From assembly GCA_964600235.1 (NCBI GenBank), contig CAZRIV010000008.1, positions 7,683 to 71,682 of the forward strand: 64,000 bases of DNA, in the 5' to 3' direction. The position numbers and the translations under genes were made by a program. Source of the DNA: an uncultured Bacteriovoracaceae bacterium (GTDB lineage: Bacteria; Desulfobacterota; Desulfomonilia; UBA1062). A model generated the notes under the pieces. That model saw only the letters and a list, made by a program, of their open reading frames with translations. It was not told the origin of the DNA and did not search any database. Positions within the stretch are counted from its first letter, which is position 1, and every line of letters begins with the position of its first letter. Below, in pieces: positions 10,352-42,037 of the stretch.

Positions 10352-10960
10352 TCAGTCGGATTCCATGGAGGTCTTCCATACCTCCCAGACCTTGCCCACG
10401 AGGTCGGGCCCGGGTTTGAGCGTGAGCTTGCCCGGTTTCCAGCCAGACGGCGTGGCCTCGGTGCCCTTGCTGTTCCGCACATACTGGAAGGCCTGGATCT
10501 GGCGGAACGTCTCGCTCACGTTCCTGCCCACCGGCGGGGTGAGCACCTCGTAGCCCTGGATGACACCGTCCGGGTCGATGAGGAACCTGCCGCGCATCTC
10601 CACGCCGGCGTCCGGGTCGTACACCCCGTATACGCTCCCCACCCGCCCTCCACCATCTGCGAGCATGGCAAAGGGCACTCCGCCCTTGACCATCTTTGAA
10701 AGCTCGTGGTCGTTCCACATCTTGTGCACGAACACGCTGTCAACGCTCATGGAGAAGACCTCCACCCCGAGCTTGACGAATTCAGGATATCTCTCGGCAA
10801 CTGCCGAGACCTCGGTGGCTCAGACAAAGGTGAAGTCACCCGGGTAGAAGCAGAGCACCACCCACTTGCCGAGATAGTCGGAAAGCTTCACCTGCACGAA
10901 CTTGCCCTTCAAATATGCCGGGGCAGTGAAATCAGGGGCCTTGCCCCCCACCTTGATCAT
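10352..10960 (-). CDS. Peroxiredoxin (AhpC/TSA family) with in-frame UGA (putative selenocysteine) at the peroxidatic-Cys position; UGA at 10820-10822
   Basis: The two listed ORFs (10820-11236 and 10352-10765) are in the same frame. Read-through gives ...[16 protein letters not shown][UGA][35 protein letters not shown]..., which aligns to AhpC ...FYPADFTFVCPTE..., so the UGA sits exactly on the Cp. Strong RBS (AAAGGAGG) 8 nt before ATG 10960 ([11 protein letters not shown]...). A SECIS-like hairpin lies 10 nt downstream of the UGA. The resolving Cys is replaced by Ser (TPSGWKPG vs VCPAKWKEG). Confidence 0.75.
10788..10812 (-). promoter_or_regulatory. Putative bacterial SECIS hairpin for the peroxiredoxin UGA
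   Basis: On the mRNA: UGA-GCCACCGAGG-UCUCGGC-AGUU-GCCGAGA. This is a perfect 7-bp stem starting 10 nt after the UGA, with a 4-nt apical loop containing GU. Confidence 0.45.
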
Positions 10961-11143
10961 AACCTTTGCCTCCTTTCGTGGACCCTCCTGTACGGGAGGT
11001 GCAGCCTCAGGTTCCCCGCCCACCGGCCCGCCTGTCGGCCTGGCGCACCCTGCCTTGATCTCTTCAGGCATAACGAACCTCCTTTCCTGTGCATCTCTGT
11101 ACATGAAACCGGCCCCCGTATGCTGAAAGGGACCTGTTTTATG

Positions 11144-11158
11144 ATTCAATACATGAAT
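11144..11158. promoter_or_regulatory. Inverted repeat ATTCA-N5-TGAAT in the prx promoter region (candidate PerR/Fur-family operator)
   Basis: Perfect 5+5 inverted repeat inside an AT-rich Fur-box-like context (TTATGATTCAATACATGAATAA), between the divergent prx and perR genes. Confidence 0.3.
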
Positions 11159-11229
11159 AAGTATAGCCCTTACATGCTCAAAGGCAATACCCGGAGCAAC
11201 GATAATTTGACTTATAAAGCAAGAATCTC

Positions 11230-11280
11230 TTGACATCCTGATAAGAAATAGTTAGATTTTTTAAATAATCATTCTTCATA
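11230..11280 (+). promoter_or_regulatory. Putative sigma-70 promoter of perR (TTGACA-17-TAGATT) with a Fur-box-like site AATAATCATTCTT immediately downstream
   Basis: Perfect -35 TTGACA at 11230-11235, a 17-nt spacer, then TAGATT at 11253-11258. AATAATCATTC at 11264-11276 resembles the Fur/PerR half-site ATAATCATTATC, consistent with autoregulation. Confidence 0.4.
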
Positions 11281-11310
11281 AACCGTATGCCACGAACGAG
11301 GTGAGAGCCC

Positions 11311-11769
11311 GTGAAACAACACCAGAGCGCCACACAGTGTTCCCGGCGTCTTGAGCAGATGCTCTCCAAGCTGAAAGAGCGGAGCTACCGCCTCACGCCC
11401 CAACGCATGGCCGTGCTCGAGATCCTCGCATCCAGCGAAGGACACCCCACCGTTGCCCAGGTCTATGAAACGGTCAGGGCCAAGTTCCCCACCACGAGCC
11501 TTGCTACGGTCTACAAGACAATCATCCTCCTGAAGGAGCTGGGCGAGGTCCTGGAGCTGGGCTTCCCGGACGGCAGCAACCGCTACGACGGCGCCAGGCC
11601 GGAGCCCCACCCCCACATCATCTGCACGAGGTGCAGAAAGATCATGGACCCTGAGCTTTCCAGCATTGACCACCTCAGCGAGGAGATGAAGAAAAAGACC
11701 GGCTATGCCATCGAGTACCACCGCATGGACTTCTTCGGCCTCTGCCCAGCCTGCCAGAAAGGGAACTGA
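11311..11769 (+). CDS. perR: Fur-family transcriptional regulator, PerR-like (peroxide-responsive repressor)
   Basis: Fur-family fold: winged-helix N-terminus (LTPQRMAVLEILA...), a C-terminal metal site with CTRC...CPAC. It lies divergent to the peroxiredoxin and directly upstream of catalase. GTG start. Confidence 0.85.
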   Translation: MKQHQSATQCSRRLEQMLSKLKERSYRLTPQRMAVLEILASSEGHPTVAQVYETVRAKFPTTSLATVYKTIILLKELGEVLELGFPDGSNRYDGARPEPHPHIICTRCRKIMDPELSSIDHLSEEMKKKTGYAIEYHRMDFFGLCPACQKGN

Positions 11770-11885: not shown

Positions 11886-13370
11886 ATGGCGAAAAAGGAA
11901 AACCCGAACAAGGATAAAAAGAAACTGACTACCAGAAGCGGCGCACCCGTGGTGGACAACCAGAACGTTCTGACCGCCGGGCCGAGGGGGCCTCAGCTCT
12001 TGCAGGATGTCTGGTTCCTCGAGAAACTGGCCCACTTCGACCGGGAGGTGATCCCTGAACGGCGCATGCACGCCAAGGGGTCCGGGGCCTATGGCACCTT
12101 CACCGTCACCCATGACATCACCAGGTACACAAAGGCCAAGATCTTTTCCAGGATCGGCAAGAAGACCGACTGCTTCATCCGCTTCTCCACCGTGGCGGGT
12201 GAACGCGGGGCAGCGGACGCTGAGCGGGACATCCGCGGTTTCGCCATGAAGTTCTACACCGAAGAGGGCAACTGGGACCTGGTGGGCAACAACACGCCGG
12301 TCTTCTTCCTGCGCGACCCGCTCAAATTCCCTGATCTGAACCACGCGGTGAAGCGCGACCCACGCACCAACCTGCGGAGCGCTCTGAACAACTGGGACTT
12401 CTGGACTTCCCTGCCCGAGGCGCTCCACCAGGTGACCATCGTCATGAGCGACCGGGGGATACCAGCAACCTACCGCCACATGCACGGCTTCGGGAGCCAC
12501 ACCTTCAGCTTCATCAACGCGAAGAACCAGCGTTACTGGGTGAAGTTTCACCTGCACACGCAGCAGGGCATCAGGAACCTCACCGATGAAGAGGCCGAGG
12601 CCGCCATCGGCAAGTGCAGGGAAAGCCACCAGCGCGACCTGTACAATGCAATCGAGAAAGGCGATTTTCCCCGCTGGACCTTCTCTGTCCAGATCATGAC
12701 GGAGAAGGAGGCCCAGGCATGCCCCTACAACCCCTTTGACCTGACCAAGGTCTGGTACCACAAGGATTATCCGCTCATCGAGGTGGGTGTTCTGGAACTG
12801 AACCGCAACCCGGAGAACTATTTTGCCGAGGTGGAGCAGTCCGCCTTCAACCCGGCCCACGTGGTCCCGGGCATCGGCTTCTCGCCGGACAAGATGCTCC
12901 AGGGCAGGCTCTTCTCCTATGGCGACGCCCAGCGCTACCGCCTGGGCGTAAACCACGACCAGATCCCGGTCAATGCGCCACGCTGCCCCTACCACAGCTA
13001 TCACCGGGACGGCGCCATGAGGGTGGACGGCAACTACGGCAGCACGCTGGGCTACGAGCCCAACAGCTTCGGCGAGTGGCAGGAACAGCCCGAGTTCAGC
13101 GAACCGCCGCTGAAGCTCTCGGGAGATGCCTACCACTGGGATTTCCGTGAGGACGATGACGACTACTACACCCAGCCGGGCAAGCTCTTCCGCCTCATGA
13201 CCCCCAAGCAGAAGAAGGCGCTCTTCGAGAACACGGCCCGGGCCATGGGCGACGCCCCCAGGGAGATCAAGTTCCGCCACATCAGAAACTGCTTGAAGGC
13301 TGACCCGGCATACGGCAAGGGCGTGGCCGACGCTCTGGCCATTGACCTGAAGAAGGTGCCCAAGGACTAG
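11886..13370 (+). CDS. katA: Monofunctional heme catalase
   Basis: Canonical catalase motifs (RERIPERVVHAKG-like [34 protein letters not shown], a distal His and a proximal Tyr region), 494 aa. RBS GAAAGGAGG lies before the ATG. Confidence 0.97.
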
Positions 13371-14516: not shown

Positions 14517-14840
14517 TCACAGGGGGTCAGTGCCCTGGTATTTTTTCCGGTACATCCGGTACGCAGCAGGGATGAACAAGACCACCACGATGAGCGCCGC
14601 ATCCACCGTGCTCAGCCCCCGAATGGCGTTCTACATGAAGTCCGCATGGCCAGGAACGTCCCCCAGGCTGACCTGCACGCCCAGGGTTAGCAAAAGCGGG
14701 GCGATCCCGAATTCCATGGAAAGACCGCAGCGCTTCTCCTCCTTCATCCTGTCCGCGTCGATACCGGTCAGGGACCTCACGAGGCTCGTCTTGCAGTGAT
14801 CAACATGGCCGGAAACGCCTATGGTAACGATCCGTGACAT
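14517..14840 (-). pseudogene. selB: selB (selenocysteine-specific elongation factor) N-terminal remnant, degraded
   Basis: MSRIVTIGVSGHVDHCKTSLVRSLTGIDADRMKEEKRCGLSMEFGIA...DVPGHADFM[TAG]NAIRGLSTVDAALIVVV then divergence and TGA. It matches the SelB G-domain (GHVDHGKT, TGxDxDRLxEEKxRGISIELGFA, DxPGHExFIxNM, LVVAADEG). It has P-loop G->C, an in-frame TAG, and is cut to ~108 codons where SelB is ~630 aa. Confidence 0.6.
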
Positions 14841-14916: not shown

Positions 14917-15008
14917 TGGAAGGGGCAAGGGGAATCGAACCTCCTCCCCGTGTGTTAGCCAGGGCTGACAGATTTGAAGTCCGCGGGGTGCCCAGCATAG
15001 TTGCCCCT
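14917..15008 (-). tRNA. selC: tRNA-Sec (selC), anticodon UCA, 92 nt including encoded CCA
   Basis: The minus-strand sequence AGGGGCAA...GCGGACTTCAAATCTGT...GGTTCGATTCC...TTGCCCCTTCCA has an anticodon loop CUUCAAA identical to E. coli selC. It has a 7-8 bp acceptor stem (AGGGGCAA/TTGCCCCT), a T-loop TTCGATT, a ~23-nt variable arm, discriminator U and CCA. It lies 76 nt upstream of the selB remnant. Confidence 0.75.
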
Positions 15009-15105: not shown

Positions 15106-16383
15106 TTATTTGAGCATCTCAACGAAGGCCTCGACCCGGGTCCTGAGCTGGCCCACGTCCTCCATGCTGTAGTCTGTCTCGATCCGCAGGGTGGGTATGC
15201 TGTTCTTCTTGAGCTCCTCGGCCACCGGGATGGACTCCATCAGATAGGGCTGGCAGAACTGGAGTCCGTAGTGGATGACCCCATCGGCCTTGTATGTCTT
15301 AACCATCTCTTCCACATGCTTCAACCGGTCAGGGTTCGGGGTGAAGATGGCGCAGTCCACCTGGAAGTAGCGCTCCACGATGGCGTCCATCAATCCATCT
15401 ACCGTACCGGCCGAGCCGTCCACCAGGTTGCGGGTCCCCCGTTCGCCCACACAGGACTCCTCGCCCACGATGACCGCGCCCGAGGTCTCCACGATCCAGG
15501 GCAGCTTCCAGTTCGGCACGGCCATGGGGCAGCCGGAGATGAGGATACGAGGTGTACCTGCGGGGAACACACCCTGCTTCTGCGCGATGCGCATCTCCAG
15601 CTCATCGCAGATCTTGTTCACGGAGTCCGTGAACCTCCTGGGATTGTCGTAGAAATAGACCTGGTTGGCCAACAGGGCGTCAACACCCGATATGGGCGCC
15701 GGGTCCGCCTGGCGAAGCCTGGACAGCCGATGAATGGCCCTGCGCTTGTTGTTCACGGTTTCGATGGCCTCCTTGAGGCCCAGGGCGTCAATGGTCACAC
15801 CGGTGAGCTTCTCAAGGGCCTCTTTAAACTTCAGGTACTCGGCCTTGAGCAATAACCGCCCCTGGGCTGATTTCATCTGGGGAAGGTCCATCACATAGAG
15901 ATTTGACACCAGGGGGCCAAGGGACTCGTAGGCCTTCTTCTTGCCGTCGCAGGTGTTCTCACCCACGATCATGTCCGAGGCCTCCAGATAGGGGCAGACC
16001 TTGCCCAGCTTGAACCCGAAGCTGGACTTGATGAGCGCGCAGGTGTTTCGTGGCAGGAGCTTCTCCACCTCTTCCAATGCGAAGTCTGCGCCCGAGCACA
16101 GCCCCACCAGGGTAGCGTTCGCCGCCAGGACGATCTCCTCGGGCACGTACACACAATAGGAGCCGATGATCTTGCGACCTGCCTTCTTCTCGTCCAGGAG
16201 TTCCCTGATCCGCAGACCATGCACCTCACTCATGACGAAATCAAAGTACTGCATACCTTCGGGTCGGTTTTTCTGCGACAGGTGAATGTCCTTATAAAAA
16301 TTCCCCAAAACCCCAAGAAGCGCGTCGTGGGCAGTCAGGTCAAGCCCCAGATCCTTCCACATGCTGCGATAGTCTTCACCCAT
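15106..16383 (-). CDS. 2-hydroxyacyl-CoA dehydratase family protein (HgdB/HadC/BcrB-like subunit), orphan
   Basis: 425-aa protein with conserved Cys ligands for the dehydratase Fe-S cluster and family-typical overall similarity. No partner A-subunit or activator is adjacent. Confidence 0.8.
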   Translation of the reverse strand: MGEDYRSMWKDLGLDLTAHDALLGVLGNFYKDIHLSQKNRPEGMQYFDFVMSEVHGLRIRELLDEKKAGRKIIGSYCVYVPEEIVLAANATLVGLCSGADFALEEVEKLLPRNTCALIKSSFGFKLGKVCPYLEASDMIVGENTCDGKKKAYESLGPLVSNLYVMDLPQMKSAQGRLLLKAEYLKFKEALEKLTGVTIDALGLKEAIETVNNKRRAIHRLSRLRQADPAPISGVDALLANQVYFYDNPRRFTDSVNKICDELEMRIAQKQGVFPAGTPRILISGCPMAVPNWKLPWIVETSGAVIVGEESCVGERGTRNLVDGSAGTVDGLMDAIVERYFQVDCAIFTPNPDRLKHVEEMVKTYKADGVIHYGLQFCQPYLMESIPVAEELKKNSIPTLRIETDYSMEDVGQLRTRVEAFVEMLK

Positions 16384-17095: not shown

Positions 17096-17584
17096 TCATG
17101 AACGGAGCGTAGCAATCAGACGTTTCGGATTTCGAAGCAGATCCAGGGCATCGAGAATGTCGGAGGCTACTATGTCGGCACTTGCCAGTGTAACCGCAGA
17201 TGCCCCTTCCTTTTGAATCAGCGCAATACCGATAGCAGCTTCACTCAGCATTTTCCTGTCATTGAGCCCATTGCCGATGGCGACAACGGTTTCTACCCCG
17301 AGCTGAGATATGAAATCAAACTTTGCTTGAGCCTGGGACTCAACCGGGATAACGGTAAGTTGCACAGGTAATCCGTGAAGCTGGTTTGCCGCCAGGCCGA
17401 ACGTGTCAGCCGTGATTACATGTATCCGGATGACGGTCGAAAGCGCAGCAAGTGCGTCACACACACCGGGAAGCAGTTTTCCGTCCACTGCAAGGGTACC
17501 GTTGAAGTCGCATACAACGTGTTCTATATGAACATTGCCAAAGCCTGGTATATTGACGTCTATCATACTGGTCTCATGAAGCAC
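17096..17584 (-). CDS. HAD-superfamily hydrolase (soluble P-type-ATPase-like HAD domain)
   Basis: Motif I VCDFNGTL. The C-terminal AIGNGLNDRKMLSEAAIGIAL...ADIV resembles the hinge/HAD motif III of P-type ATPases. 11-nt overlap with nifS. Confidence 0.8.
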   Translation of the reverse strand: MLHETSMIDVNIPGFGNVHIEHVVCDFNGTLAVDGKLLPGVCDALAALSTVIRIHVITADTFGLAANQLHGLPVQLTVIPVESQAQAKFDFISQLGVETVVAIGNGLNDRKMLSEAAIGIALIQKEGASAVTLASADIVASDILDALDLLRNPKRLIATLRS

Positions 17585-18719
17585 TACGCAGTCTGATCGC
17601 TGCCGAGGCCACTACATCGACGGCCCGATCGATCTGGGCAACGGTGGTCATCCGGCCAATGGAAAATCGCAAGGTCCCCTTAGCCCATTCGATCGGCACC
17701 TGCATGGCCTCAAGCACATGGGAGACGGTAACAGTGCCGGCATGGCAGGCGGCTCCGGCCGAGGCGGCGACTTCAAGCCCGATCTCCTCCAGCAGGCGAT
17801 TGGACTCGATCCCACTGAATGACAGGTTGAGGGTGTTGGGCAGCCGGTGTTCGGGGTGGCCGTTGAGCCGCACATCTGCCACCCGTGAGGAAATACCCTT
17901 ATGCAGCCTTTCGCGCAGGTCCCTCATGCGGACCATGCTGCCGGACAGTTCTCTTGCCGCTATCTCGCAGGCCTTGCCCAGGCCCACAATCCCAGCCACG
18001 TTCTCCGTACCTGCCCTCCATCCCTTCTCCTGCCCGGCGCCGTGGCAGAACTTCTCAGGCGCAAGGCCTTTCCGTACATAAAGTGCCCCCACGCCCTTGG
18101 GCGCATACAGCTTGTGGCCGGCAACGGAGAGAAGATCAACACCGAGGGTCGACACATCGGCCGGGATCTTACCAATCGACTGGGCGGCGTCGGTGTGCAT
18201 GGCAATGCCGCGCGCCCTGGCCAGTTCGGCAACAGCCGCTATGGGTTGCACCGTACCCACCTCATTGTTTGCATGCATGACCGTAATCAGGATGGTGTCG
18301 GGGCGCAGGGCCTGTTGCACCTGCGCGGGTTCGAGCATGCCCTGGGCGTCCACGGCCACCTTTGTGGTTTCAAATCCTTCACCTTCAAGGTGCCTGCATA
18401 CTTCCAATACTGCCGGGTGCTCAATGGCGCTCGTGACGATGTGTCTGCCTTTGAGCTTGAGCGCCCGGGCCATACCCTTTATCGCATGGTTGTTGGATTC
18501 GGTTCCTCCGGAAGTAAAGAAGACCTCTTCGGGCAGACAGCCGAGCAGACCGGCCACCTGCCGCCGCGCTGACTCCACGGCCTGCTTCGGCATGATGCCA
18601 TACCAGTGGGAACTGGACGGGTTGCCGAACTCCTCCTCCAGAAAGAGCCGCATGGCGGCAAGCACTCCGGGGTCGAGGGGTGTTGTACCGTTGTAATCAA
18701 GGTAGATAGGCCTGGTCAC
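17574..18719 (-). CDS. nifS: Cysteine desulfurase (NifS/IscS-type class V aminotransferase)
   Basis: N-terminus IYLDYNGTTPLDP, PLP Lys region ...SVAGHKLYAPKGVGALYVRKG, and an active-site Cys loop. Confidence 0.9.
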   Translation of the reverse strand: MTRPIYLDYNGTTPLDPGVLAAMRLFLEEEFGNPSSSHWYGIMPKQAVESARRQVAGLLGCLPEEVFFTSGGTESNNHAIKGMARALKLKGRHIVTSAIEHPAVLEVCRHLEGEGFETTKVAVDAQGMLEPAQVQQALRPDTILITVMHANNEVGTVQPIAAVAELARARGIAMHTDAAQSIGKIPADVSTLGVDLLSVAGHKLYAPKGVGALYVRKGLAPEKFCHGAGQEKGWRAGTENVAGIVGLGKACEIAARELSGSMVRMRDLRERLHKGISSRVADVRLNGHPEHRLPNTLNLSFSGIESNRLLEEIGLEVAASAGAACHAGTVTVSHVLEAMQVPIEWAKGTLRFSIGRMTTVAQIDRAVDVVASAAIRLRSAS

Positions 18720-38246: not shown

Positions 38247-38458
38247 CGTAATTGTCCTGTCCGGCCCGGTCGTACCAGACCATGAGGGTTATCCTTATAC
38301 CATATCGCCGAGGACTTCAAAGGGCAAGAGGCCTTCTTGAAATGCATGATACTGCTGAGCAGCGCTTTCCATATGGAGATCTTTCCCATGCCGGTGGCCG
38401 TTTTTTATGGTATTATCAGCCATTCATTGAAAAGTGACCGGCTTCAAGGGGAGGCCCC

Positions 38459-39478
38459 ATGCCTGAACTGAAGTTTGAACCGGAGCTCTGCGCAACGTGC
38501 ACCACCATCGACTGTGTCATGAAGTGCCAGTACATGGACCTGGACCTTGCCAGGGCAAGGGATGAACATGACCGGCTCGTGCGCAAAGAGCGTTCATCGA
38601 TCCTCACCGACTGTGTCACCTGTTATGCCTGCGAGGAATACTGCCCTTGCGGCAACCACCCCTTCTACCTCATCGTGGAGAGGCAGGAACAGCTGGACAT
38701 CCATCCCGTCCCTGTGCCCATCGAGAAATCCCAGGTGGTCATGATGGCCCCCAGGGGCAGGATCGTCCCCGAAGAGGTGCATGCCCCGGTGATCGACATG
38801 TGCTTTTTCGACATCATGAAGGCAGGCATCAGGGGAAGGCTCTTCGAAGGCGCCACCACCATAGGGGGAAGCGATGTCTTCTGCAACCTCATGTTCCTCC
38901 ACTTCGCCCGCAACTCCACCATCAAGGAGCGGCTCCCGCTGATCATGGAGAACATCATGCGTTTCCACCTGGAGCCCTCGGGCGTCTCCGAGCTCATCTG
39001 CTTCCACGACGAGTGCTACGGCACCTACACCTCCTGGGCGAAGGCCTTCGGTCTCGAGGTGCCCTTCAAACCGGTCCACTTCTTCGACTACCTCTACCAC
39101 CGTCTCGTCGAGATGAAGTCCGAGATAAAACCGCTGAACGTGAAGGTGGCCTACCAGCGCCCGTGCTCCAACCGGCTCTGCCCCGAGACCGACCACTACG
39201 TGGACGACATCTTCGGCCTTATCAGTGCCGACAGACCGAAGAGGACCTACGAGTACGGCAATGCCCTGTGCTGCGGGGGCGTGCCCGAGGCCGCCCAGCG
39301 CTTCGACCTGGTGGACGATATCAGGGGCAGGAACGTGGAGGACATGAGGGCCGCAGGCGTCCAGTACTGCGTGTTCAACTGCCCGTTCTGCTTCTGGACC
39401 CTGGCAGAGCCCGTGGCCAAGGCGGGTATTTTCCCCATCATGATGTCGGACCTGTGTCTCATGGCGCTTGGGGAGTGA
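38459..39478 (+). CDS. (Fe-S)-binding protein, ferredoxin + CCG (Cys-rich) domains (GlcF/LutA/HdrD-like)
   Basis: CATCTTIDCVMKC and CVTCYACEEYCPCG, then a CCG-domain CCGG motif. RBS GGGGAGG. Confidence 0.85.
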   Translation: MPELKFEPELCATCTTIDCVMKCQYMDLDLARARDEHDRLVRKERSSILTDCVTCYACEEYCPCGNHPFYLIVERQEQLDIHPVPVPIEKSQVVMMAPRGRIVPEEVHAPVIDMCFFDIMKAGIRGRLFEGATTIGGSDVFCNLMFLHFARNSTIKERLPLIMENIMRFHLEPSGVSELICFHDECYGTYTSWAKAFGLEVPFKPVHFFDYLYHRLVEMKSEIKPLNVKVAYQRPCSNRLCPETDHYVDDIFGLISADRPKRTYEYGNALCCGGVPEAAQRFDLVDDIRGRNVEDMRAAGVQYCVFNCPFCFWTLAEPVAKAGIFPIMMSDLCLMALGE

Positions 39479-39487
39479 GGAGAGATC

Positions 39488-40876
39488 ATGGAACGTTCGG
39501 CGATAATCAAACGGCTGAAGGCCATCGTGGGCGATGCCTGTGTCTCGGATGCCCCCGAGGAACTCTTCATCTACTCGCGGGACCAGGGGGTCCAGGAACC
39601 TCACCTGCCCGACTGGGTAGTCATGCCGGCGAGCACCGGCGAGGTGGTCTCCATCCTGAAACTCGCCTCCCGGGAGAAGATCCCGGTGGTGCCCATGGGC
39701 GGAGGGCTCGTGCTCTCGGGTCTGTCCGTGCCGCTGCAAGGAGGCATCGTGCTGGACATGAAGCGCATGAACCGCATCCTTGAGGTAAATGAGCACAGCC
39801 ACTACGCGGTGGTGGAGGCAGGGACCTCCCAAGGTATGCTCGATGCCTATCTCAGGAAGCATCACCCCGGCCTCAAGCACTCGCTGCCCGACGCGCCTCC
39901 TGGGGCCACCGTTGCGGGAAACATCGCCATCCACGGCTCCGGACACCTCTCCCAGAGCGAGGGCGGGTTCCACTCCGAGATGGTCACCGGGCTCGAGGTG
40001 GTGCTCGCGAGCGGCGAGGCCGTGAAGATCGGCTCGTGCTCCACCGTGCCTGCCTGGTTCTCCCGGGCACCCCTGCCCGACCTGGCGGGCCTGTTCCTCG
40101 GCTGGAACGGCACCACCGGTGTCATTACCAAGGTGGGCATCAAGCTTTTCCCCCGTCCGAAGCACCATGATGTCCTGGTCTACATGACCGAGGACATCGA
40201 CCTGGCCCCGTTGGTGCTTTCCCGGGTGATCGGCACCTCCATGGCCGAGGACATCAACTACGCCCTGGCGCCCAAGCCGGACTACCTGAACGGTTTCCAG
40301 ATGACCGTGATCAACTTCACGGCCGCCTCCGAGGACGAGCTCACCTTCAAACGCAAGAAGCTCCGCTCGGTGATGAAGGACCTCTACGACACGAAGAGGT
40401 CCGGGTTCATGCCCATACCCCCGAACATGAAGGCGGGCTTCCTCGAGGCGCCCCAGAAGGCCCTGAGCAAGTTTGCCGACGTGCGCAAGGGCGGCGGGTT
40501 CGAGTATGTGGGCGCCATCATGCCCATCGAGAAGATCCCGGATGCCTGCAGGGCGGGCATGGCCATCACGGCGCGGCACAACATCACCTACTCATTGGGT
40601 TCCCGCATCATCGGGCGCGGGCACGCGGCCATGTTCTTCTTCGCCTACCCCTTCAACCGGGTGGACAAAGATGAGGTGGAGCGGGTGAAACAGGCCCTGG
40701 ATGACACCAACGAGACGGCCCTGGCGCTGGGCGGCATCCCCTGGAAAACCGAGGTGCAGGGCCAGCAGCTCATCCTCAAACAGATGGACCCAGCCACACG
40801 TGCCCTCATCAAGCGGATCAAGGGGGTCCTCGATCCGGACGGGATCATGAATCCCGGCAACTGGGAGGTGGCCTAG
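39488..40876 (+). CDS. FAD-binding oxidoreductase (GlcD/D-lactate dehydrogenase family FAD-linked oxidase)
   Basis: FAD_binding_4 domain (VVPMGGGLVLSG...) plus the C-terminal FAD-oxidase_C domain. 462 aa. Confidence 0.9.
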   Translation: MERSAIIKRLKAIVGDACVSDAPEELFIYSRDQGVQEPHLPDWVVMPASTGEVVSILKLASREKIPVVPMGGGLVLSGLSVPLQGGIVLDMKRMNRILEVNEHSHYAVVEAGTSQGMLDAYLRKHHPGLKHSLPDAPPGATVAGNIAIHGSGHLSQSEGGFHSEMVTGLEVVLASGEAVKIGSCSTVPAWFSRAPLPDLAGLFLGWNGTTGVITKVGIKLFPRPKHHDVLVYMTEDIDLAPLVLSRVIGTSMAEDINYALAPKPDYLNGFQMTVINFTAASEDELTFKRKKLRSVMKDLYDTKRSGFMPIPPNMKAGFLEAPQKALSKFADVRKGGGFEYVGAIMPIEKIPDACRAGMAITARHNITYSLGSRIIGRGHAAMFFFAYPFNRVDKDEVERVKQALDDTNETALALGGIPWKTEVQGQQLILKQMDPATRALIKRIKGVLDPDGIMNPGNWEVA

Positions 40877-42037
40877 ATGGACAGTGCATACCGCGACATC
40901 CTTCACAGGTGCTTCCGCTGCGGCTGGTGCAAGTTCCCGCTCAACTATACCGACTTCAACTGTCCCGCCTATCTGAAGTTCCGCTTCGAGTCGTTCTCTT
41001 CGGGCGGCAGGATGTGGCTCATCAGGGCATGGCAGGACGGAGAGATCGCCACCAGCGAACGTCTCGGGCAGATCCTCTTCTCGTGCGTCACCTGCAGGAA
41101 CTGCGTGGAGGCATGCGCCATACCGGGCATAAAGGACAAGCTGGTGGACGTGTTCATCGAGGCTCGCTCGGACATGGTGGAACAGGGCAGGATACCGCCA
41201 AAGGTGAGGGACTACTTCAAGGCCATCAGCGTAAACGGCAACCCCTACAAGATGCCGGCTGGTGACAGGGGGAAATGGTCTGACGGCCTCGGACTGGACA
41301 GGTATGAAGACCAGGAATATCTCTTCTATGTGGGGGACGAGGGCGCCTTTGACGAGATGGGCCAGAGGATGGCCCGGTCCGTGGCCACGCTCATGAAGCG
41401 GGCCGGGTTGTCTTTCGGCGTCATCTTCGAAGACGAACTCACCGACGGCAACGACGTGCGCGCCCTGGGTGAGAAGGGCCTGGCCGCATACCTGGCCCAG
41501 CAGAATATCGCGCTCATGATCGCTCGCGGGGTGAAAAAGGTCATCACGCTGTCCCCGCATGCGTTCAATGCCATGAAGAACGAATACCCCGCCCACGGCT
41601 CGACCATACACGTGGAGCACTACACCCAGACGTTGCGGCCCCTTATGGGGAGCCTCGGCGCCGGGGCGTCCACCGGCAGGGTGGTGACCTACCACGACCC
41701 CTGCTACCTGGGTAGGTGGAACAACGAGTACCTCGCCCCACGCCAGATCCTGAAATCCGTCAAGGGGCTCAAGCTCGTGGAAATGGACAGGGCAATGAAA
41801 AACGCCCTGTGCTGCGGGGGCGGAGGGGGCAACTTCTTCACGGACATGCTCGGCACAGGGCCTGACCTGGCGGCTCGGGCACGGGTGAAAGAGGCGCTCG
41901 CAACGGGTGCGGACACCATCGCCGTGGCCTGCCCACAATGCCTGAGGATGCTCGGAGATGCCGTGAAGGACGAAGGCGTCGAAGACATGATCCAGGTGAG
42001 GGAGATCTCCGAAATCGTGAACGAAGCCGCGCCCTGA
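40877..42037 (+). CDS. (Fe-S)-binding protein with two CCG domains (GlcF-like)
   Basis: CFRCGWCKF...CPAY and CVTCRNCVEAC ferredoxin motifs, then CCGGGGGNF CCG domains. Confidence 0.85.
   Translation: MDSAYRDILHRCFRCGWCKFPLNYTDFNCPAYLKFRFESFSSGGRMWLIRAWQDGEIATSERLGQILFSCVTCRNCVEACAIPGIKDKLVDVFIEARSDMVEQGRIPPKVRDYFKAISVNGNPYKMPAGDRGKWSDGLGLDRYEDQEYLFYVGDEGAFDEMGQRMARSVATLMKRAGLSFGVIFEDELTDGNDVRALGEKGLAAYLAQQNIALMIARGVKKVITLSPHAFNAMKNEYPAHGSTIHVEHYTQTLRPLMGSLGAGASTGRVVTYHDPCYLGRWNNEYLAPRQILKSVKGLKLVEMDRAMKNALCCGGGGGNFFTDMLGTGPDLAARARVKEALATGADTIAVACPQCLRMLGDAVKDEGVEDMIQVREISEIVNEAAP

Follow-up and report, generated by a model that had tools for sequence, protein, structure and literature searches.

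A prxU-type selenocysteine peroxiredoxin gene with a conserved N-terminal cysteine arm, located near a probably decayed selC*-type tRNA gene

The prxU locus and its neighbourhood

The minus strand of the window (the whole stretch of DNA analysed, 64 kb) carries a single reading frame at positions 10352-10960, interrupted by one internal TGA at 10822-10820; translation through this codon confirmed an earlier sequence-only reading, in which two annotated ORF fragments had been proposed to form one frame. The features of the locus are listed in Table 1. The product of the long frame scored 413.0 bits (profile positions 2-233), and that of the short form 396.3 bits, against NF040737 (peroxi_PrxU), a whole-protein HMM of 233 positions with an equivalog cutoff of 270 bits. 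This is the curated NCBIfam family of the Eubacterium acidaminophilum selenoperoxiredoxin, described as selenocysteine/cysteine thioredoxin-dependent peroxiredoxin. The Pfam domains AhpC-TSA (1.7e-36) and 1-cysPrx_C were also recognised. Homologues of 237-240 aa covered 97-100% of the long frame, and residues 1-239, or nearly all of them, were matched in 80 out of 80 related genome loci, which belonged to Desulfobacterota, Spirochaetota, Nitrospirota, Chloroflexota and others. Over the 150 codons 3' of the UGA, prxU and its counterpart in one of these loci (L001) differed at 12, 9 and 83 sites in codon positions 1, 2 and 3, respectively, with 13 amino-acid changes, and sequence comparison indicates that purifying selection acts on prxU both before and after the UGA.

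Table 1. Positions of the features discussed in the text, in window coordinates
Feature	Position	Strand	Remarks
prxU, long frame	10352..11071	minus	239 codons including Sec84; stop TGA 10354-10352
Thr207 codon	10451..10453	minus	aligned with the C-terminal resolving Cys of canonical enzymes; EVCPAGW versus EATPSGW (phmmer: 4fh8, 7kj1, 5zte)
SECIS hairpin (predicted)	10792..10809	minus	5' arm TCTCGGC 10809-10803, loop AGTT 10802-10799, 3' arm GCCGAGA 10798-10792
UGA, predicted Sec84 (Sec47 in short form)	10820..10822	minus	peroxidatic residue, P77-x-x-x-T81-x-x-U84
Cys74 codon TGC	10850..10852	minus	10 residues before Sec; invariant in 96 aligned proteins
Internal in-frame ATG (Met38)	10958..10960	minus	probable start of 202-aa short isoform, Sec47
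Internal Shine-Dalgarno AGGAGG	10969..10974	minus	within linker coding sequence
N-terminal motif G8-C9-A-R-P-T-G-G-P-V-G18	11018..11050	minus	Cys9 codon 11047-11045
Shine-Dalgarno AGGAGG	11078..11083	minus	6 nt 5' of ATG 11071-11069, long-isoform start
Sigma-70-like promoter candidate TTGCCT-16-TATACT	11160..11187	minus	5' of long start; consensus scan only
FUR-family regulator, PerR-like, divergent	11311..11769	plus	Pfam FUR 104 bits
Monofunctional catalase	11886..13370	plus	Pfam Catalase 642 bits
selB* pseudogene remnant	14583..14840	minus	first ~88 codons; P-loop GHVDHGKT to GHVDHCKT; stop 14630-14628
selC*-type tRNA-Cys(UCA)-like gene	14917..15008	minus	A1 = 15008, U73 = 14920, encoded CCA 14919-14917

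The PerR-catalase neighbourhood described in the sequence-only reading was recovered, the two genes lying next to prxU. The best NCBIfam match of the regulator was PerR, at 128 bits and thus under the equivalog cutoff of 180. Homologues of the regulator adjoin prxU in the related loci L001, L026, L027 and L078, and a catalase is found near prxU also in L034, L058 and L078. Co-regulation of prxU and the catalase by the divergent PerR-like repressor is probable. The intergenic region 11072-11310 contains AT-rich palindromes at 11207-11222 and 11255-11270.

Sec-Prx has been verified by experiment as a family of bacterial selenoproteins, characterised by a TxxU motif (PMC9312934, PMC13188914), and the selenoproteomes listed for Syntrophus, Syntrophobacter, Geobacter and others include it (PMC1794560). 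The literature on PrxU goes back to 2001 (Sohling et al. 2001, Biol Chem 382:979) and 2006, and many anaerobic bacteria possess it; the family is already known, and the gene described here is a correct but ordinary instance of it. In annotation, the two ORF fragments should be joined as a single selenoprotein gene, prxU, which starts at 11071 and has Sec as residue 84 of its long form. Biologically, the locus is a further case of a well-documented tendency of anaerobic Desulfobacterota and other anaerobes to place Sec in a peroxide scavenger beside PerR and catalase.

The in-frame UGA and the downstream hairpin

At the UGA the translated motif reads P77-G-D-F-T81-F-V-U84, followed by ATE. An alignment to Prx homologs, which had been suggested as a check, was done with phmmer, and the stop codon fell in the column of the peroxidatic Cys (Cp; DFTFVCPTE) of the PDB chains of solved Prx1/AhpC structures (E = 1.7e-48 to 4fh8, 1e-46 to PRDX2, and 1e-41 to 1e-48 across typical 2-Cys Prx structures). 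A TGA occupied this column in 80/80 related genome loci, and a Cys was present in other homologues (P0015, P0026, P0033, P0086, P0090, P0106 and P0120). The proposal that the UGA encodes Sec as the catalytic residue of a peroxiredoxin is supported. Database proteins with a W at the Sec column have a TGA codon in the DNA, the W being a choice of the gene caller (P0001). A G at the same column was also considered as a possible recoded TGA and was rejected, the DNA of the protein in question (P0011) having GGA (Gly) at this position, with the hairpin intact.

The hairpin begins after a gap of 10 nt (10819-10810) 3' of the UGA, with 17 nt from the UGA to the apical loop, and consists of a perfect 7-bp stem and a 4-nt AGUU loop, with an energy, for the hairpin alone, of -11.4 kcal/mol. 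Within the loop (A10802, G10801, U10800, U10799) the A and the last U can close as a pair, leaving GU exposed. The bacterial SECIS consensus model is that of Zhang and Gladyshev 2005, and as summarised in PMC13188914 (Figure 2 legend) it comprises an apical loop of 3-9 nt on an upper stem of 4-16 bp; a G at loop position 1 or 2, usually followed by G/U, with pairable N1/N2 flanks; a distance of 16-37 nt from UGA to loop; and an MFE of at most -7.5 kcal/mol. The prxU hairpin lies within all four criteria as summarised there.

Among 73 distinct sequences, the hairpin was paired in 99.0% of cells, relative to 37-70% for slid controls. Compensatory (double) changes were found in five of eight hairpin pairs, and the covariation score was matched by none of 500 shuffles. 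For example, pair 24-39 occurred as UA (48), CG (16) and AU (7), and pair 27-36 as GC (45), AU (24), UA (3) and CG (1), while the closing pair 30-33 (N1:N2) was AU in 40 sequences, GC in 32 and GU in 1; loop positions G31 and U32 were invariant in 75 sequences. One of the compensating changes (ATA...GAT) alters the protein, from Glu to Asp. On the window sequence alone, the 54-nt region gave z = -1.33, at which the hairpin is not statistically unusual for its composition, so that the support for SECIS function comes from the comparative data and not from the fold of the window by itself. No Rfam family matched the hairpin in a scan of the window. Given its agreement with the model, the 99% pairing and the covariation, the earlier suggestion of a bona fide bacterial SECIS downstream of the UGA is upheld, and the hairpin is classified as a SECIS element for which SelB binding and read-through are predicted. 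Like the SECIS of Escherichia coli fdhF and of Moorella thermoacetica fdhA, it lies just 3' of the UGA, within the coding sequence, and it shares with known bacterial elements a small apical loop with G then U, a closable flanking pair and adequate stability. Unlike the fdhF element, it has no bulged U in the stem, and sequence similarity to that element is limited to the GU of the loop.

Decoding of the UGA and the nearby tRNA-like gene

By analogy with established bacterial Sec biology, the UGA at 10822-10820 would not be read as a stop during translation: the downstream hairpin, presenting an exposed G-U on a closed stem, would recruit SelB-GTP-Sec-tRNA(Sec), and this complex would deliver Sec to the A site. 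Within the 64-kb window, no selA, selB, selD or canonical tRNA-Sec was found, and Pfam and NCBIfam scans of ~40 window ORFs gave no match to SelA, SelB, SelD or CysRS; the only Sec-like elements in the window are the tRNA-like gene and the selB* remnant described below. Sec competence of this particular genome is therefore an inference. Of 41 Pfam-supported window genes, 28 end in TGA as their ordinary stop, prxU among them, so that the UGA within prxU represents a local recoding. When the window was scanned for in-frame TGAs flanked on either side by coding signal, only that of prxU emerged. A candidate double-stop selenoprotein at 38438-42037 was rejected, the region consisting of three ordinary genes in the same frame, each with its own Shine-Dalgarno sequence and ATG.

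A tRNA-Sec gene had been claimed 4 kb from the peroxiredoxin. The tRNA-like gene is real, but its U73, A1:U72 and 8/4 architecture with a bulged T arm mark it as of the selC* tRNA-Cys type. With default settings ARAGORN reported no tRNA at all in the 64 kb, and with relaxed thresholds a mis-drawn tRNA-SeC; likewise, at gathering thresholds no Rfam family matched anywhere in the window, tRNA-Sec (RF01852) appearing only below threshold, with 36.4 bits for this gene against a gathering threshold of 47. The gene has an 8-bp acceptor stem (AGGGGCAA/UUGCCCCU) with A15008:U14921 as A1:U72 and U14920 as the discriminator (U73), a UCA anticodon, a 5-bp variable stem, and a T arm (GG(A)GG-UUCGAUU-CCCC) with a 4-bp stem and a bulged A (A51a), giving the 8/4 acceptor/T architecture. 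Only three standard pairs are present in the D stem, compared with 6 bp in canonical tRNA-Sec. Canonical tRNA-Sec carries a G73 discriminator, which is a SerRS identity element, and the canonical-looking tRNA-Sec genes found in a metagenome scan had G73 (L092, L104 and L142). The gene shares U73, A1:U72, UCA and a GG(A)GG/CCCC T arm with a metagenomic tRNA family of over 100 members, in which GCA with G1:C72 was counted 34 times, UCA with A1:U72 30 times and UCA with G1:C72 28 times. Of the 28 pairs of this family, 25 are kept in the gene described here, the three broken ones lying at positions that are 99-100% conserved (G10, G11 and G43). No broken stem pair was found in 54 of 70 family members, and at least two in 3 of 70. 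The gene retains an intact acceptor stem, T arm, anticodon loop and CCA.

The selB* remnant begins 76 nt 3' of the tRNA-like gene and matched residues 1-88 of the SelB of metagenome locus L196 with 61% identity (tblastn, E = 1e-26), ~550 codons having been deleted. An intact GTPase motif of the SelB type lay 45-170 nt 3' of the tRNA in most of 120 metagenome loci (L081-L200), and the one looked at more closely, the SelB encoded 3' of a tRNA of the same type in L196, is a TIGR00475 selB (313 bits). A pattern search of the window for the SelB P-loop was negative because the P-loop of the remnant is mutated, and the remnant was detected by tblastn. In selC* tRNA-Cys, U73 occurs with a GCA or UCA anticodon, and A1:U72 accompanies UCA (Mukai et al. 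2017, PMC5389517). With the deltaproteobacterial selC*/selB*/cysS* module (Mukai et al. 2017, NAR 45:2776, PMC5389517), the tRNA-like gene shares U73, A1:U72 and UCA, as well as the 8-bp acceptor stem, the bulged A in a T stem of 4 bp, a variable arm that is long, and a homologue of selB located 3'. Unlike in that module, three pairs are broken, only 88 mutated codons are left of selB*, and no cysS* turned up in the window; the genes are neighbours of prxU that need not take part in its expression. The tRNA-like gene is thus probably a degraded selC* relic outside the PrxU decoding apparatus. Together with the selB fragment, it is not evidence for a working Sec machinery, and the two should not be counted in annotation as the Sec machinery of the organism. 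As an observation in its own right, the pair represents a selC*/selB* cysteine-recoding module caught in decay.

The best explanation overall, to which a probability of about 0.9 was assigned, is that prxU encodes a Prx1/AhpC-class peroxiredoxin with a UGA-encoded Sec as the peroxidatic residue, read via the SECIS element. Were the gene instead a pseudogene, a Cys-peroxiredoxin lately inactivated by a TGC to TGA change whose hairpin is a chance product of Ser-Ala-Val-Ala-Glu codons, the only marginally better folding of the 54-nt region than of its shuffles, and the lack of visible Sec machinery in the window, would be accounted for. This is very unlikely, as the TGA is shared by all 80 loci across several phyla, synonymous sites covary so as to preserve the stem, to an extent that none of the 500 shuffles reached, the 150 codons after the TGA are under purifying selection, and the frame is intact down to a normal stop. 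Recent inactivation without a conserved hairpin in the orthologs, named in the sequence-only reading as an outcome that would speak against it, is contradicted by the same loci: the TGA in every one of them and the conserved, covarying hairpin rule out a recently inactivated Cys-Prx. A still smaller probability attaches to the UGA being a true stop, with an 83-residue N-terminal peptide and a separate C-terminal fragment starting from GTG 10765. Mechanical ORF calling yields exactly these two fragments, yet neither is a complete Prx fold, the catalytic loop would be split at the peroxidatic position, the frame is maintained across the TGA in every homologue along with the SECIS, and the Cys-form homologues are single polypeptides. 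Equally negligible is an organism-wide alternative code that assigns TGA to Trp or Gly; the W written at the Sec column of many database homologues could be read in this way, but it originates with the gene callers, TGA terminates most of the Pfam-supported window genes, and only one in-frame TGA in the window combines a two-sided coding signal with a recognisable read-through protein.

Somewhat less improbable, although still very unlikely, is that the UGA is read as Cys, alone or beside Sec, by the selC*-type tRNA-Cys(UCA) 4 kb away, giving a Cys-peroxiredoxin when selenium is scarce. The tRNA-like gene has the cysteine-identity set of UCA, U73 and A1:U72 and retains the intact parts named above, and in E. 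coli supplied with a suitable CysRS, selC* tRNAs are able to decode a Sec UGA as Cys (PMC5389517). Against this stand the three broken stem pairs in a family where most members have none, the adjoining elongation factor gene, which is a pseudogene (P-loop Gly to Cys, premature stop, ~550 codons lost), the failure to find cysS* among the Pfam-scanned window ORFs, and PrxU loci of other genomes that have no selC*-type tRNA nearby.

N-terminal arm, probable internal start and candidate resolving thiol

The ORF most likely begins at ATG 11071, 37 codons upstream of the start at 10960 assumed in the sequence-only reading, and the extension is conserved in homologues. Most of the 81 homologous genes have a Shine-Dalgarno-like motif ahead of M1. 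The GC..P of the N-terminal motif was present in 81/81 sequences, and Cys9 was invariant in 96 aligned proteins. Entropy in the codons of the motif was ~0 bits at positions 1 and 2 and 1.0-1.95 bits at position 3, a pattern which indicates that selection acts on the protein. In all 81 homologous genes, AGGAGG, AAGGAG or GGAGG was found 6-10 nt 5' of the internal start codon, which was ATG in 79, GTG in 1 and ATT in 1, and the residues encoded at this internal Shine-Dalgarno site varied (KE, QE, EE, RE, AE, PE or TGG). Short homologues start at the internal ATG (Met38). The conserved internal Shine-Dalgarno sequence and ATG 10960 suggest a second, shorter isoform; initiation at both in-frame starts, for each of which a separate Shine-Dalgarno sequence is conserved, would probably yield a 239-aa protein that has the Cys arm and one of 202 aa that lacks it. 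ClpB, IF2 and CheA are each made as two isoforms from in-frame internal starts, and prxU likewise has a conserved internal Shine-Dalgarno sequence and ATG and a conserved upstream protein part. To our knowledge, dual in-frame initiation has not been described for any peroxiredoxin.

The PrxU of Eubacterium (Peptoclostridium) acidaminophilum reportedly has Sec at residue 47 of a core of ~202-203 aa. It is named thioredoxin-dependent, and prxU shares with it the equivalog HMM match, PxxxTxxU and the missing canonical C-terminal resolving Cys. The window prxU and the 80 related loci differ from it in their 37-residue N-terminal extension, GCxRPTGGxVG and the extra upstream start. The NCBIfam profile (233 positions) already takes in the extension. 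No literature discussing the N-terminal extension of PrxU was found, nor any on a role of the GCxRPTGGxVG motif or on dual initiation of PrxU.

In fold, prxU resembles the typical 2-Cys Prx1/AhpC enzymes (human PRDX2 1qmv/7kj1, Salmonella AhpC 1yep/4ma9), with a DFTFV-C/U-xTE loop, a conserved Arg (RGxFxID) and a C-terminal GWKPG segment. It differs from them in having Sec for Cp, Ala for the Pro after Cp, and Thr for the resolving Cys of EVCPAGW; with Sec for Cp and Thr for the resolving Cys, the Cp-Cr intersubunit disulfide mechanism, by which this class is defined, is impossible in the prxU product. The canonical C-terminal Cys is accordingly absent, as had been claimed, but its replacement is Thr207 and not a Ser, which lies two residues later. 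The product has only two Cys, Cys9 and Cys74, and none of 81 sequences had a Cys 3' of the Sec. That the protein lacks any resolving Cys, and acts by a 1-Sec mechanism with an external thiol, was however not established. The start at 10960 had left out the conserved 37-residue arm with Cys9, found in 81/81 sequences, and Cys74 is also conserved, so that resolution by an internal thiol is no less likely than by an external one.

In the proposed catalytic cycle, the Sec84 selenolate, in a PxxxTxxU pocket with the conserved Arg, would attack H2O2 or an organic hydroperoxide to give a selenenic acid, which a thiol would resolve to a selenenyl-sulfide, to be reduced last by thioredoxin. The best internal resolving candidate is Cys9, its motif being placed at the end of a flexible N-terminal tether of ~25 residues; Cys74, or direct attack by thioredoxin, would be the alternatives. 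An AlphaFold model of a Cys homologue (P0026) gave a confident Prx core (core pLDDT > 90, pTM 0.83), with a pLDDT of 53-62 for the N-terminal motif and < 50 for the linker, values at which docking of the motif is not claimable. Tentatively, and with clearly less confidence than for the identity of the gene, two PrxU isoforms might exist in this clade, only the long one having the tethered Cys9 to resolve the Sec84 selenenic acid and the short one being a 1-Sec enzyme. If true, the tethered Cys9 model would amount to a 'Sec/Cys' version of the 2-Cys mechanism that relies on the N-terminal arm. The strictly conserved N-terminal Cys motif and the conserved internal ribosome-binding site are side observations which together hint that there may be two isoforms and that the resolving thiol may be an unconventional one.

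The prxU frame and its in-frame UGA

Translation of the minus strand from 10960 to 10352 gave a single frame of 202 codons, the sole interruption being TGA 10822-10820, at which ORF calling had split the gene into a 5' piece ending at the TGA and a 3' piece starting at GTG 10765; the sequence-only reading had rightly joined the two. With the stop written as Cys for profile searches, the protein matched Pfam AhpC-TSA (1.7e-36), Redoxin and 1-cysPrx_C, and the 202-codon form scored 396 bits against the NCBIfam equivalog NF040737 (peroxi_PrxU; curated cutoff 270), the second-best NCBIfam model being AhpC (190 bits, cutoff 272). The best matches of solved structure were typical 2-Cys peroxiredoxins (4fh8 (1.7e-48), human PRDX2 and AhpC), and the TGA aligned exactly with the peroxidatic Cys of their DFTFVCPTE motif, as had been proposed from the sequence. 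Judged by these matches, the gene is prxU, and its product a member of the PrxU family. PrxU, a selenocysteine peroxiredoxin, was reportedly first purified from Eubacterium acidaminophilum by Sohling et al. in 2001. Reviews list it, with its TxxU motif, among the experimentally verified prokaryotic selenoproteins (PMC9312934; PMC13188914), and a Sec-peroxiredoxin has been recorded in the selenoproteomes of Syntrophus, Syntrophobacter, Geobacter metallireducens, Anaeromyxobacter, Syntrophomonas and others (PMC1794560). The find is a rediscovery of an already known, curated family, and a standard annotation pipeline based on NF040737 would name the gene.

Related prxU loci, sampled as one genome per species, numbered 80, from Desulfobacterota (Syntrophales, Desulfobacterales, Smithella), Spirochaetota, Nitrospirota, Anaerolineae, Caldithrix, KSB1, Acidobacteriota and others. 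All 80 had a stop at the Sec column: the FYPGDFTF motif led to 74 of them, every one with TGA, and the six outside that search likewise carried a stop. Many close homologues in the protein database had 'W' in this column and more distant homologues had Cys; for the homologue P0001 the stored W was a TGA codon in the DNA. By alignment, the stop column of prxU is the classical Sec/Cys column. A recently inactivated Cys-peroxiredoxin (TGC to TGA), with orthologs lacking a conserved hairpin, was the alternative raised beforehand, and it is contradicted by the stop in 80/80 loci and by the covarying hairpin described below. Between the window and its closest relative (L001), the 150 codons past the UGA differed at codon positions 1/2/3 by 12/9/83, with 13 amino-acid changes, which shows that this part of prxU is translated and under purifying selection. 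A variant genetic code was ruled out, since 28 of the 41 Pfam-supported window genes end in TGA as their ordinary stop, and the UGA of prxU therefore reflects local recoding.

Among the database matches (P0001-P0120), most close PrxU homologues were entered with Trp in place of Sec, a result of gene callers reading TGA by another code (checked for P0001 only); such entries are a systematic annotation artefact that conceals selenoproteins. The homologue P0011 (nine contigs; positions 550-552 of its locus, L202) is a natural prxU variant in which the catalytic codon is GGA (Gly) in place of TGA and the SECIS hairpin is still intact; an inactive enzyme, a mutation of very recent date and an error of assembly are all possible explanations. 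Elsewhere in the window, three same-frame ORFs at 38438-42037 (+), parted by single stops (TGA 39476 and TAG 40874), were considered as a multi-stop selenoprotein and rejected, being three genes each with its own Shine-Dalgarno (SD) sequence and ATG.

Coordinates of the features around prxU in the window
Feature	Position	Strand	Remarks
N-terminal motif with conserved Cys	11018-11050	-	Cys in 81/81 sequences
Internal Shine-Dalgarno and Met38 ATG	10958-10974	-	same position in L001-L080 (related prxU loci)
Spacer from TGA to hairpin	10819-10810	-	10 nt
SECIS hairpin	TCTCGGC 10809-10803, loop AGTT 10802-10799, GCCGAGA 10798-10792	-	perfect 7 bp
FUR-family regulator	11311-11769		divergent from prxU
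Monofunctional catalase	11886-13370		after PerR-like gene
selB* pseudogene	14583-14840	-	76 nt downstream of selC*-like tRNA; first ~88 codons left
selC*-type tRNA-Cys(UCA)-like gene	14917-15008	-	U73, A1:U72, 8/4 arms with bulged A, encoded CCA

A covarying SECIS hairpin

The hairpin alone folded at -11.4 kcal/mol. Taken in the window sequence alone, the 54-nt region was not unusual for its own composition (z = -1.33), so the case for a function must rest on comparison with other sequences. In a gapless alignment of 75 sequences (73 distinct), 99.0% of the hairpin cells were paired and five of eight pairs showed both-sided changes, among them pair 24-39 (UA 48, CG 16, AU 7), pair 27-36 (GC 45, AU 24, UA 3, CG 1) and the loop-closing pair 30-33 (AU 40, GC 32), while the central loop bases G and U were invariant. 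The observed covariation score was reached by none of 500 shuffles, and pairing fell to 37-70% once the 3' partner was shifted by 1-3 columns. The covarying positions are wobble bases of Ile/Val, Ser, Ala, Val, Ala and Glu codons; seven sequences keep the pair by ATA...GAT, at the cost of a Glu to Asp change. In the published bacterial SECIS model a stem of 4-16 bp carries a loop of 3-9 nt, the loop has G among its first two bases, with G or U next and a pairable N1/N2 on either side, the UGA lies 16-37 nt away, and the MFE is no higher than -7.5 kcal/mol (PMC13188914). The prxU hairpin, 17 nt from the UGA by this measure, agrees with all four, and the SECIS-like element noticed from the sequence is upheld. 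By established Sec biology, SelB-GTP-Sec-tRNA(Sec) would bind the exposed GU of the hairpin and decode the UGA.

Start codons and cysteines

Besides ATG 10960, the start taken by the sequence-only reading, prxU probably has another. ATG 11071 lies in the same frame behind an AGGAGG (11083-11078) and lengthens the protein by 37 residues; with these, positions 2-233 of the PrxU profile were matched (413 bits), and homologues of 237-240 aa span the whole 239-aa query. All 81 genes (80 loci and the window) encode M..E...GCxRPTGG.VG, followed by a variable acidic/basic linker of about 25 residues and then by Met-Ile/Val-x-Val-Gly. Entropy in the motif was essentially zero at codon positions 1 and 2 and 1.0-1.95 bits at position 3, which points to selection on the protein and not on the DNA. 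Both starts have a conserved ribosome-binding site. At the internal one, 81/81 genes carry an SD-like sequence within about 6-10 nt of the ATG (62 with AGGAGG, 10 with AAGGAG, 6 with GGAGG and 3 with a shorter core of GGAG type), although the residues encoded by these bases vary (KE, QE, EE, RE, AE, PE, TGG). The simplest reading of this conserved arrangement is that two isoforms would be made, one of 239 aa with the N-terminal arm and one of 202 aa without it. The motif and the dual-start architecture of prxU are not known to have been described; no description of GCxRPTGG.VG was found in the literature searched.

The absence of a resolving Cys, as claimed earlier, held for the canonical position only: no Cys follows the Sec in any of the 81 sequences, but an alignment of 96 homologues showed Cys9 (in the N-terminal motif) and Cys74 without variation. 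Where the Prx1/AhpC class has its canonical resolving Cys (EVCPAGW), the window protein has Thr207 (EATPSGW) in the alignment, and the Ser proposed as its replacement sits two residues further on. In an AlphaFold model of a Cys-form homologue (P0026; pTM 0.83) the Prx core had pLDDT above 90, the linker was disordered (below 50) and the N-terminal motif, at 53-62, was not reliably docked. By analogy with Prx chemistry, Sec84 would be oxidised to a selenenic acid, a thiol would resolve it and thioredoxin would reduce the product; speculatively, the tethered Cys9 might be that thiol, which the short isoform would lack.

Neighbouring genes and a probable relic of a selC*/selB* module

The oxidative-stress locus described from the sequence stood as to the catalase and the FUR-family gene; the regulator's best NCBIfam match was PerR, at 128 bits below the equivalog cutoff of 180, and 'PerR-like' is thus the defensible name. 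PerR-like genes adjoin prxU in L001, L026, L027 and L078 and catalase in L034, L058 and L078, so this context recurs without being universal. Two AT-rich palindromes between prxU and perR, at 11207-11222 and 11255-11270 (TTGACTTATAAAGCAA; GATTTTTTAAATAATC), are possible PerR/Fur boxes.

A tRNA-Sec gene had been placed 4 kb away. ARAGORN found no tRNA in the window and Rfam nothing at gathering thresholds; at relaxed thresholds RF01852 (tRNA-Sec) matched 15009-14920 (-) with 36.4 bits (gathering score 47). The tRNA-like gene is real, with an 8-bp acceptor stem (AGGGGCAA/UUGCCCCU) that has A1:U72, a discriminator U73 followed by encoded CCA, a UCA anticodon, a long variable arm and a T arm, GG(A)GG-UUCGAUU-CCCC, of 4 bp with a bulged A; this set of features defines selC* tRNA-Cys. 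Mukai et al. described selC* of Deltaproteobacteria as a cysteine-charged mimic of tRNA-Sec, in which A1:U72 accompanies UCA, with a second selB (selB*) downstream of it (PMC5389517; PMC7609411). Scanning metagenomes for the bulged T-arm pattern gave 120 loci, nearly all with U73 (GCA/G1:C72 34, UCA/A1:U72 30, UCA/G1:C72 28), with a cloverleaf 98.9% paired, 13 covarying pairs and, in most loci, a SelB-type GTPase motif 45-170 nt downstream; in the one locus checked (L196) the downstream gene was a TIGR00475 selB (313 bits). The copy in the window stands apart, with three of its pairs broken by changes (G10 to T, G11 to A, G43 to A) at positions 99-100% conserved in the family, of which 54/70 members have no broken pair. 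Residues 1-88 of the L196 protein matched the selB* remnant at 61% identity (E = 1e-26); in the remnant, GHVDHGKT of the P-loop is altered to GHVDHCKT (Gly to Cys), an in-frame stop (14630-14628) follows DVPGHADFM, and the other ~550 codons are gone. The tRNA-like gene and the selB fragment are thus probably the wreck of a cysteine-recoding module, and they neither support nor undermine Sec insertion into PrxU. Among about 40 window ORFs scanned with Pfam and NCBIfam, there was no match to SelA, SelB, SelD or CysRS; we infer Sec competence of the source genome because TGA, SECIS and frame are all intact, and from the complete selABCD that Mukai et al. found in all selC*-containing isolate genomes they examined (PMC5389517).

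Loss of the selC* module seems to recur among the metagenome loci: the 3' acceptor strand is missing in L094 (~1725-1800) and L121, with a gene for the double-cubane-cluster reductase DCCP 17 nt on; the variable arm is truncated in L146; and in L136 the 3' acceptor strand is mutated, with no SelB-type motif downstream. Of the 80 loci only L065, from a spirochaete MAG, had a canonical-looking tRNA-Sec (~245 (-)) close to prxU, at a distance of a few hundred bases. The window also has a DCCP gene (15106-16383 (-); NF040772, 475 bits), and DCCP recurs beside selC*/selB* in metagenomes (L094, L103, L106, L122, L143, L177, L184, L196 and others), in the orders DCCP-(activase)-selC*-selB* or selC*-selB*-DCCP-activase; we know of no described functional link between them. 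At 2.5 kb from the selC*-like tRNA gene there is a gene for a NifS-type cysteine desulfurase (17574-18719 (-)), which scored 474 bits with TIGR03402, short of its cutoff of 531, and its product weakly resembles the selenocysteine lyase SclA (116 bits, cutoff 525).
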